NCBI GenBank assembly: GCA_964408025.1
Contig: CAYOXX010000002.1
Location: 97,711 to 161,710 of the forward strand
Length of the DNA stretch: 64,000 bases
Source of the DNA: an uncultured Acidobacteriota bacterium
Lineage (GTDB): Bacteria; Acidobacteriota; DATKUA01
Direction of reading: 5' to 3'
Numbering within the stretch: the stretch's first letter is position 1; the number at the start of each line of letters is the position of its first letter. This document shows, piece after piece, positions 45,586 to 46,909 of this stretch. Made by a program: the position numbers and the translations under genes. The notes under the pieces are model-generated. The model was not told the origin of the DNA and did no database searches. It worked only from the letters and a program-made list of their open reading frames with translations.

Positions 45586-45752
45586 AGGCCGCCACAGCGG
45601 CCGACGTGACATGGGAGCACAGGCGCTGTGCCGTCGGTATGGAACCCAAACCAGCCTTTCCTGCGAGTGACATGTGGAGCTGGACTACCGCACCGAAGGG
45701 CGGCTACGCGTAATGGGACCGCCAGCCTTGCGGTGGCGTAGAGGGTGGGTTT
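45586..45752. repeat. Diverged duplicate of the segment immediately 3' of tRNA-Ser. It comprises a hairpin aggccgccacagcggccg, the block catgggagcacaggcgctgtgc, and a degenerate copy of the tRNA-Ser 3' end tggcgtagagggtgggtttc
   Basis: Compared with 46729-46840; 18 of 20 nt of the tRNA 3' end match. Confidence 0.4.
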
Positions 45753-45911
45753 CTTTCTCGGAGTGGATCAGGAAATAACCCGAGAAAATACTCTACTTGG
45801 CTAAGCATGTTCGGCCATGTACAATCGGCCTGTTCATTAAGGATCGGCTAGAGCTACAGATCTCGGATTGTCCGGGGCGGCTGATTGCCAATGCGTTTGG
45901 GAGAGATGAAA

Positions 45912-46298
45912 ATGAAGATTCTAACGTCTGTGATGCTCGCTTGTGCTTTGGGGATATTCGTTCTCCTAGTGTCCCTTAACACGGCATGTACTCAGGAAGA
46001 TGCTGTAGGCACTGAAGATGTAGCTGAATATCAAGAGACTGAGGTGACTCTGGACCAGGTTCCAACGGCAGTCAGAGAGACGATGCTTAGTGAGGCTGGC
46101 GAGAACGTGATTACGGAGGTTGAAAGAGTTACCAGGGGAGATCGCGAGATATTCGAAGCAGAATGGATCGAAAATGAACAGGAAGTCGAAATCAGGGTGG
46201 CTGCAGACGGCACTCTCCTCAGCAAGTGTTTTGAGTTCGTTGACGACGACGATGACGACGATGACGACAATTACAACGATGATGACGATGAGTACTGA
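45912..46298 (+). CDS. Small secreted protein with a PepSY-like core and a poly-Asp acidic tail (DDDDDDDDDNYNDDDDEY)
   Basis: Shine-Dalgarno GGGAGAG 6 nt before the ATG at 45912. Low-GC gene. Confidence 0.4.
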   Translation: MKILTSVMLACALGIFVLLVSLNTACTQEDAVGTEDVAEYQETEVTLDQVPTAVRETMLSEAGENVITEVERVTRGDREIFEAEWIENEQEVEIRVAADGTLLSKCFEFVDDDDDDDDDNYNDDDDEY

Positions 46299-46817
46299 CA
46301 CCTGGAGAGGATACCGATCACTAATCCGCTAAAATCCTGATTTATGAGCAATTACCTGTCTATGAGGTGGATACCTAATTTTCACTCCTGAATCAGAGAG
46401 ATCGTATGTGAATTGCTGTCCTAACCTGTTCGCACAAATGGCTAGAGTGGAATGTTGTGAAGATTTTAAACCTTCTGGCGGAAAGGTTGGGATCAATGAC
46501 GGCCTTTCTCGCGAGTGACGGGTGGAGGTAGATGAGTGCACCGGTCGGCCGCTACGCGGATTGTTGCTTACTTGTAAAGTAAGTGGCGGAGAGGGTGGGA
46601 TTTCCGCCTCCGTCCGCACTCGCTATGCTTCGGCGTACTACGGCGGACTAGCTCACCTGGGCGTGGGTTCTCATCCCATAAAATTCGGAAGTATCTAGTG
46701 AATGTTTGTCACGCGCGTTAGGCCCGCTGAGGCCGCCACGGCGGCCGATAAGGGCCGTCAAGCCTATAGGAATCGCGCGAGTGTTGCTTCGCGACCATGA
46801 GAGCACAGGCACTGTGC

Positions 46818-46909
46818 TGGCGGAGAGGGTGGGATTCGAACCCACGGTGGGCGTTAACCCACACACGCTTTCCAAGCGTGCTCCTTAGGCCTCTCGGACA
46901 CCTCTCCGC
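46818..46909 (-). tRNA. tRNA-Ser (anticodon GGA), class II with a long variable arm, CCA encoded
   Basis: The reverse complement reads GCGGAGAGGTGTCCGAGAGGCCTAAGGAGCACGCTTGGAAAGCGTGTGTGGGTTAACGCCCACCGTGGGTTCGAATCCCACCCTCTCCGCCA, near-identical in architecture to E. coli serV. Confidence 0.85.

Follow-up and report, generated by a model that had tools for sequence, protein, structure and literature searches.

Tandem copies of a tRNA-Ser 3' end as a probable array of integration junctions in an uncultured Acidobacteriota bacterium

Why should the 3' end of a tRNA gene recur, in direct orientation and at short intervals, beside the intact gene? The question is raised by tRNA-Ser(GGA) in a 64,000-nucleotide (nt) stretch of contig CAYOXX010000002.1 from an uncultured Acidobacteriota bacterium, here termed the window. 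An earlier note made from the bare sequence had proposed that the gene carries the footprint of an insertion of approximately 1 kb bounded by one pair of attachment (att) sites, attL and attR. The kind of event was judged correctly, but a single insert with one attL/attR pair is too simple a description, as several displaced copies of the tRNA 3' end are present. The region 45586-46836 is probably a compact tandem array of att junctions that arose by repeated site-specific integration at tRNA-Ser 3' ends.

Displaced copies of the tRNA 3' end

The assignment of tRNA-Ser(GGA) in the earlier note was upheld by ARAGORN and Rfam, and the gene is the sole tRNA that ARAGORN detects in the window. The last 19 nt of the gene form the unit that recurs and are denoted core-e, and the displaced copies are denoted core-a to core-d from left to right (Table 1). 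A search with the 18-nt core TGGCGGAGAGGGTGGGAT that tolerated up to three mismatches produced four matches in the window, at 45734, 46476, 46584 and 46818, the last of which is the tRNA itself. Dinucleotide shuffles yielded an expectation of 0.08 matches and no shuffle reached four. No further copy of the core was found elsewhere in the 64-kb window. The three displaced matches and the tRNA are contained within 1.1 kb and, when the degenerate core-a is included, the five cores lie on one strand within 1.2 kb. Core-a was recognized by eye and in alignments only and is the weakest member of the set. The array holds at least three, and probably four, displaced copies of the tRNA 3' end. The copy reported previously at 45733-45752 is present, but matches positions 46817-46836 at 17 of 20 nt instead of the 18 that were claimed, whereas core-d, core-c, the degenerate core-a and a duplicated 62-nt block, Y, had been overlooked.

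Fortuitous resemblance between GC-rich hairpins or other low-complexity sequences might be invoked for matches of this size, and individual short matches have weak BLAST expectation (E) values of 0.01-0.8. Nevertheless, this explanation is excluded for practical purposes by the number of core matches compared to the shuffles, by the E value of 2e-7 for block Y, and by the independent recovery of the same modules in approximately ten unrelated contigs. The shuffles and block Y also dispose of the proposal, raised in the earlier note as a way in which its reading might fail, that the similarity is limited to low-complexity hairpins.

The copies share precise limits. The identity of every copy, both in the window and at 12 related loci, starts in the T-loop and ends at CCA. 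Among 26 core positions from 13 sources the junction is always located after GGGAT(T) in the T-loop, and the sequence beyond the core is the tRNA body, an arm termed Z, a short CAATRAC-Y arm, or cargo. The partial copies were rejected as pseudo-tRNAs, a status for which the earlier note had advised testing the upstream copy, or as a duplicated tRNA gene because ARAGORN called none of them at thresholds of 90% or 80%. Block Y and arm Z similarly were rejected as degraded tRNA bodies: no similarity past the 19-nt core was apparent by eye and relaxed ARAGORN searches were negative.

The four displaced cores, with core-a included, delimit four intervals: three, of 102, 108, and 234 nt, are empty, and the remaining one bears a gene. 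The earlier description of an AT-rich interval that encodes only a small secreted protein applies to this last interval, but the roughly 1 kb to which it referred is subdivided by further cores. The encoded protein is predicted to be a PepSY-like secreted protein: a homolog with 52% identity, P0017, carries PF11396 (PepSY-like), and Pfam and PHROGs scans of the open reading frame (ORF) itself produced no match. Whether the interval behaves as a mobile cassette was pursued through this ORF, but the only non-identical homolog (52%) is adjacent to a response-regulator gene, lacks units in its vicinity, and is uninformative. The window copies are decaying, with mismatches in core-a, core-b, and core-c and with divergence between the two versions of Y.

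Table 1. Positions of the array features in the window.
Feature	Position	Strand	Description
X', copy of trailer X	45586-45631		~41 nt absent relative to X
Core-a	~45632-45653	-	Degenerate copy, CGTCGGTATGGAACCCAAACCA
Y1 block	45654-45715		74% identical to Y2 over 62 nt; BLAST E 2e-7
Core-b	45734-45752	-	17/19 match to tRNA 3' end; preceded by hairpin 45718-45734
Sole interval with a gene	45753-46475	+	723 nt; GC 0.469 versus 0.60-0.65 in flanks
ORF in gene-bearing interval	45906-46298	+	130 aa; signal peptide (by eye), poly-Asp tail
Core-c	46476-46494	-	2 mismatches in 18; preceded by hairpin 46459-46475 (GAAGATTTTAAACCTTC)
Y2 block and trailer hairpin	46502-46563 and 46564-46583		Hairpin TTGCTTACTTGTAAAGTAAG
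Core-d	46584-46602	-	Perfect 19/19 copy of tRNA 3' end
Arm Z	46603-46680		Replaces tRNA body right of core-d; TCCGCC..GGCGGACTAGCTCACC..GTGGGTTCTCATCCCA
Trailer X of live tRNA	46730-46817	-	From repeat families, alignments, and fold
Core-e	46818-46836	-	Last 19 nt of tRNA-Ser(GGA), T-loop to CCA; TGGCGGAGAGGGTGGGATT (+ strand)
Intact tRNA-Ser(GGA)	46818-46907	-	ARAGORN; Rfam RF00005, 54 bits

Modules that accompany the cores

From left to right the array comprises X', core-a, Y1, a hairpin, core-b, the gene-bearing interval, a hairpin, core-c, Y2, a hairpin, core-d, Z, a spacer of ~50 nt, X, and the tRNA. Trailer X contains a GC hairpin at 46731-46746, Y-like boxes (CGCGAGTG..GCTTCGCGACCATG), and a hairpin with a 7-bp stem and 3-nt loop at 46803-46817 that abuts CCA. 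The recurrence of the GC hairpin and of a 22-nt block at 45586-45631, as set out in the earlier note, was reproduced: the hairpin is identical at 15 of 16 positions to 45587-45602, and 46796-46817 is identical at 20 of 22 positions to 45610-45631, both within X'. To the left of X', 45483-45585 includes a possible degenerate tRNA-like fragment on the + strand in which an anticodon-arm-like TCGGT-CTGTAAA-ACCGA (45551-45567) is followed by GTTCGATCC (45570-45578). ARAGORN reported a dubious tRNA at 45483-45569 at the 80% threshold only, and Rfam returned nothing for this segment.

The core-Y-core module occurs twice in full, and the mean column identity of the two segments is 76%. Block Y includes the conserved boxes TCCCGCGAG, CTGGAT, and CKACGCGGA arranged around an internal hairpin, and the unit consensus can be written as TCCCGCGAG...CKACGCGGA followed by a hairpin and the tRNA 3' end. 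When the + strand is aligned, each core is preceded by a box that resembles GCTACGCGnnTG and then by a hairpin. In the tRNA sense, a 7-bp stem with a 3-nt loop is positioned within 0-1 nt of CCA in four of the five cores. The stems next to the cores fall into three sequences, GCACAGU, CUUACUU, and GAAGGUU; the copy at 45734 possesses a 5-bp stem. The tandem-like character of the 102- and 108-nt units, the duplication of core-Y-core in its entirety, and the homologous flanks X and X' are features that would be predicted by local duplication without any recombinase, in which slippage or unequal crossing-over copied the trailer with the last 19 nt, gene conversion spread the modules, and other DNA was inserted later. 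However, every copy terminates at one T-loop position irrespective of whether Z, Y, or AT-rich cargo comes next, and slippage leaves unexplained a conserved arm Z with no relationship to the tRNA body.

Arm Z is homologous in alignments with sequences in the related contigs L022, L027, L031, L033, and L034, and was detected by nhmmer with an E value of 8e-15 using a profile in which the window sequence was included. The conserved pattern is TCCGCC-loop-GGCGGATAAACTCACCCG-nnn-GCGGnTTCTCATCCCG, with a signature stretch GGCGGATAAACTCACCC..GCGGTTTCTCATCCCG; by eye the arm comprises two direct repeats of a motif of ~16 nt, GCGGwT..CTCA.CCCG. Z was considered as a structured RNA and rejected: RNAalifold found 0 compensatory pairs among 18 predicted pairs, with a covariation term of +0.31, and there was no Rfam match. 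Conserved sequence with 0 compensatory pairs is as expected of protein-binding arm DNA, and both Z and the boxes may be read as such. Z-like relics also are located in the window at 62815-62860 and 63075-63120, 16 kb from the tRNA, in an intergenic region between SIS/CBS and radical-SAM genes where GC content drops at the window end. The relic TCCGCCTTCGTCCGC..GGCGGACTTCAGCGGATAAATTCAGCCCG aligns with Z of L031 with a score of 38 compared to a shuffle maximum of 30, whereas the upstream relic is weaker.

The hairpins differ in kind from Z. The internal hairpin of Y occurs in four unrelated sequence versions, all of which are palindromic with triloops, and the hairpins after the cores likewise retain their 7-bp/3-nt-loop form with differing sequences. 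This behavior, and the conservation of boxes and hairpins between lineages in which the adjacent VTT protein is only 65-70% identical, is in accord with functional RNA modules that are co-transcribed with the tRNA as a processing signal, terminator or small RNA and are maintained by selection instead of mobility. That possibility is regarded as remote. When the units were compared with Rfam 15 at E values up to 10, only the tRNA was credible and other hits were far below gathering scores. Furthermore, Z lacks covariation, the number and order of the copies vary in relatives, some sites are devoid of units (L002), and the window copies are decaying. The hairpins also are explained if a functional trailer for the tRNA has to be brought in by the integrating element. 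We infer that the hairpins are constrained in structure and that each most simply represents the trailer hairpin which the integrating element provides for a working tRNA.

Related loci and contigs of the same species

Related Acidobacteriota contigs were recovered through homologs of the VTT protein (56-90% identity), and further loci came from a metagenome scan for the hairpin together with the beginning of the core. All contigs recovered through VTT share one gene order on the right side of the tRNA: VTT, YkuD, hypothetical, M99 peptidase, LysM, HD-GYP, and GAPDH. In contrast, the genes to the left differ in every lineage and have no homolog in the window according to tblastn. Thus, the tRNA constitutes a synteny breakpoint. 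In the window, the array is flanked by a class A β-lactamase-like gene at 44334-45356 (- strand) and by the gene for the VTT/DedA-type membrane protein at 47053-47640 (+ strand), neither of which is a recombinase gene.

The core, hairpin, Y, and Z modules are located in relatives behind three tRNA-Ser genes, GGA (L022, L023, and L027), GCT (L033), and CGA (L037), in varying numbers. The tRNA-Ser isoacceptors have their 3'-terminal 36 nt in common, as read from the window and L037 sequences, and therefore one recombinase could use them all. At least three units are present behind tRNA-Ser(GGA) in L027. In L023, one unit and a degenerate core follow tRNA-Ser(GGA); a GerE regulator and a peptidase S15 are enclosed by hairpin copies located another 3.6 kb outward. 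The units in L033 are situated behind tRNA-Ser(GCT), the anticodon of which was read from the sequence, and units in L034 and L035 abut AT-rich DNA. A module next to tRNA-Ser(CGA) in L037 is identical to window positions 46476-46602 at 116 of 127 nt; a second unit is 4.7 kb away and the intervening DNA encodes a 1235-aa PD-Lambda-4_A-like STAND protein (1766-5473, - strand). Cores 5.8 kb apart in L031 bracket an HD/dGTPase-like gene, AAA_28, a HEAT-PNP effector-like gene, a mad2-like methyltransferase gene, and an IS3 rve fragment, in a cargo region that extends from 1151 to 5698. The cargo that units enclose in relatives is unrelated, and that in L037 and L031 looks defense-related. The earlier note had held that conservation of the same arrangement as a normal tRNA flank would undermine its interpretation. 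Similar modules do occur in relatives, and superficially this applies, but they vary in number, order, and cargo and are missing from some sites. The modules are instead shared mobile or recombining modules and not a fixed flank.

The long-read contig L022 contains a perfect 54-nt direct repeat, consisting of 35 nt of trailer and the 19-nt core, that surrounds a 128-nt spacer which aligns with Z of the window. Perfect repeats of this type are compatible with the local duplication outlined above. The most informative comparison involves L002 and L034. In L002, tRNA-Ser(GGA) is followed by another type of trailer and lacks displaced copies, whereas L034 contains an L002-type trailer (~91% identical over ~137 nt, by our own count from the alignment), then the core, and then Z in place of the tRNA body. 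Homology between the two stops exactly after GGGATT in the T-loop. The pair has the configuration expected for attB versus attR and, as sequences from relatives and not from the species of the window, appears to be the strongest single indication of site-specific insertion. The precision of this junction, the compositionally foreign genes within intervals, and the differences in cargo between lineages argue against local duplication, which we consider unlikely. In L002, ~3 kb of low-GC DNA (2106-5164) also separates the VTT gene from the 5' side of tRNA-Ser(GGA); it includes an ORF of 647 aa that was judged from its sequence to be FG-GAP/VCBS-like. Thus, both sides of the tRNA can vary.

Contigs L003-L017 from the same species were obtained by exact-protein look-ups. 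Their nucleotide identity to the window is 97-100% and their architecture is identical. The relative L018, with 90% identity, ends 87 nt past the tRNA. L009 is otherwise >99% identical to the window and contains 26 single-nucleotide polymorphisms (SNPs) in 46260-46471, in common with L016, that end 5 nt before core-c. Further SNPs are clustered in 47000-47500, corresponding to the 5' half of the VTT gene (61 SNPs), and in 50000-50250 (12 SNPs). The SNP tracts in L009 look like recombination from a diverged lineage.

Of 18 short-read contigs with the VTT gene, 14 end within the tRNA or exactly at its 3' terminus; contigs that end at the tRNA are L001, L003-L007, L019-L021, L026, and L028-L030. 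Logan contigs from the same species also stop at 46565, where the hairpin starts, and at 46821-46824. These breaks were discounted as a sign of population variability as the shared 3' half of tRNA-Ser and the repeated units break short-read assemblies. The stops at the tRNA probably reflect this assembly effect of the repeated hairpin with core and the shared 3' half.

On a larger scale, a block of ~33 kb (14000-47000) in the window has a GC content of 0.44-0.63 compared to mostly 0.62-0.70 in the flanks, ends at the tRNA, and includes metabolic, transport, and β-lactamase-like genes. A larger island with a distant core as its boundary was considered, but no copy of the core, Y or Z is located near 14 kb and the proposal was rejected.

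Proposed integration at the T-loop and comparison with known systems

The repeat anatomy, the exact junction in the T-loop, the sharing of modules by the genes for three tRNA-Ser isoacceptors, and the occupied and unoccupied pair among relatives can be accommodated in one scheme. A recombinase of the tyrosine or serine type would exchange strands in the T-loop. The incoming DNA would carry an attP-like site composed of Y boxes, the 7-bp hairpin, the 19-bp core, and arm Z. Upon integration the element would furnish the tRNA with a new 3' end and trailing hairpin, while the previous 3' end and trailer, now joined to Z, would be pushed outward. Successive events would accumulate by accretion, and internal deletion or unequal exchange between cores would generate the empty units of 100-230 bp and the one single-gene interval. 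The recombinase and the order of these events are inferred, as would be any continuing mobility of a unit.

Under an Islander-type definition of tRNA-targeting integrative islands (PMC4383910), the locus displays a regenerated, intact target tRNA at one end, a displaced tRNA 3' fragment in direct orientation at the other, and an identity block that starts at a canonical sublocation, the T-loop. An integrase gene inside the element, which the definition also includes, was not found in the scanned ORFs. An unoccupied site in a relative, a further part of that definition, is represented by L002 versus L034 and by no contig of the species of the window. The tandem att-flanked segments without integrase or transfer genes are those that define cis-mobilizable elements and accretion.

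A number of points weigh against repeated integration as the origin of the array. Neither an integrase nor an excisionase domain was detected in 34 window ORFs that were scanned with Pfam, and with PHROGs for the unknown small ORFs. The set encompassed larger ORFs from 12.5-49.4 kb, small ORFs from 27-30 kb, and four ORFs from 59.9-64.0 kb, and the outcome agrees with the statement in the earlier note that no integrase remains; it also is in keeping with local duplication. Scanned ORFs from cassettes and flanks of L023, L027, L031, L033, L034, L035, and L037, a coverage that was not exhaustive, similarly included no recombinase. No unit was found in viral contigs, using hairpin plus core and hairpin patterns, or in phages and plasmids by blastn. 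Within the species of the window (L003-L017) neither an empty site nor presence/absence polymorphism was seen, and hence the array may be a fixed relic. The duplication of the X and X' flanks is not predicted by a simple attL/attR pair, in which the flank proximal to the tRNA would be element-derived and the distal one chromosomal; X' therefore more likely is an arm that belongs to an additional unit of greater age. Unequal crossing-over could account for the 102- and 108-nt units (core-CAATGAC-Y-hairpin-core). Finally, that the hairpins at the cores and in Y vary in sequence and keep their structure hints at a role at the level of RNA or structure that the att model does not require. Despite these points, we consider repeated integration the probable origin of the array. 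No outer boundary was found on the left side of the array, and our guess is that it continues leftward beyond X'.

The nearest things to a recombinase in L031 are the IS3-type rve fragment and a single 82-aa GIY-YIG gene, and neither was counted as such. The GIY-YIG nuclease-domain gene (259-507, - strand) lies between two units, is the only GIY-YIG gene among the fetched loci, and is directly to the left of a conserved flank starting ATGCCCGGGCGT; the same flank precedes cores in L033 and L035. Three matches in viral contigs to a 17-mer of Z were dismissed as chance as they are inside unrelated genes. An autonomous element with the same att site and an integrase that acts in trans was not found among the fetched loci, viral contigs, phages, and plasmids that were scanned.

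Tandem ssrA islands of Dehalococcoides are characterized by a 20-bp T-loop repeat, and some that are without an integration module have been proposed to be cis-mobilizable (McMurdie et al., 2011; PMC3146451). As in the array described here, many direct repeats of the last ~20 bp are arranged in tandem downstream of an intact tRNA-like gene and the repeat-adjacent sequence is conserved (PMC3146451). Sixteen of the Dehalococcoides islands carry the serine recombinase DsiB (PMC3146451), whereas no integration module was found here. Moreover, the target in the present case is tRNA-Ser, with several isoacceptors, instead of tmRNA, and the units are far smaller, at 100-230 bp when empty with one single-gene interval of 0.7 kb. 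The array also is reminiscent of the cis-mobilizable element and accretion model for ICESt1/ICESt3 of Streptococcus thermophilus, in which att-flanked segments that lack an integrase are stacked in tandem behind the 3' end of their target gene, with att junctions inside the stack. Unlike in that model, no related autonomous element is known here and the units can shrink to the att arms alone.

In Prochlorococcus islands, repeated integration of tycheposons pushes older elements inward and leaves partial tRNAs and degraded elements scattered, with cargo that includes defense and niche genes (Hackl et al., bioRxiv 10.1101/2020.12.28.424599). The locus described here likewise points to recurrent integration at one tRNA that left partial tRNAs behind, but the tyrosine recombinases and replication modules of tycheposons were not seen, and the array belongs to Acidobacteriota and is much more compact. 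The attP of mycobacteriophage Ms6 integrates into the T-loops of several tRNA-Ala genes (PMC1762012). A crossover in the T-loop and the use of several tRNA genes with a common 3' end are thus common to both systems, but Ms6 is an intact phage that encodes an integrase of its own, whereas only att-like relics are seen here.

Integron cassette arrays also are similar in that cassettes are short and mostly single-gene, the units resemble recombination sites, and hairpins are preserved in structure and variable in sequence. In contrast to integrons, intI, attI, and Pc are absent, the tRNA 3' end takes the place of the attC R and L boxes, and gene orientation is mixed in relatives. Membership of an integron was rejected: the array is flanked by the β-lactamase-like and VTT genes, and attC boxes (RYYYAAC...GTTRRRY) are absent, as judged by reading the consensus. 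A bolder proposal, which we put forward only tentatively and hold to be doubtful, is that the T-loops of all tRNA-Ser genes in marine-sediment Acidobacteriota support an integron-like cassette system. Att-only modules of ~110-200 bp and cassettes with a single or few genes, often for defense, would be shuffled among the GGA, GCT, and CGA genes by a recombinase provided in trans or by a host enzyme, and the hairpins would function in the site or in tRNA maturation. If units are exchanged in trans, this would be a cassette system that is remote from its integrase and built on the tRNA T-loop.

The locus conforms to a known kind of hotspot, that of tandem att-flanked relics without an integrase next to a tRNA gene. 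Its unusual attributes are the extreme compaction, the arms that are common to three isoacceptors, and the hairpins that are conserved in structure. The array illustrates how small such an island can become, with nothing but att junctions of 100-230 bp remaining. The shared arms Y, hairpin, core, and Z provide a DNA signature with which the missing recombinase might be sought and a flexible, partly defense-related cargo mapped. The tRNA-Ser gene is marked as a recombination hotspot and synteny breakpoint in a poorly studied, uncultured group of Acidobacteriota.

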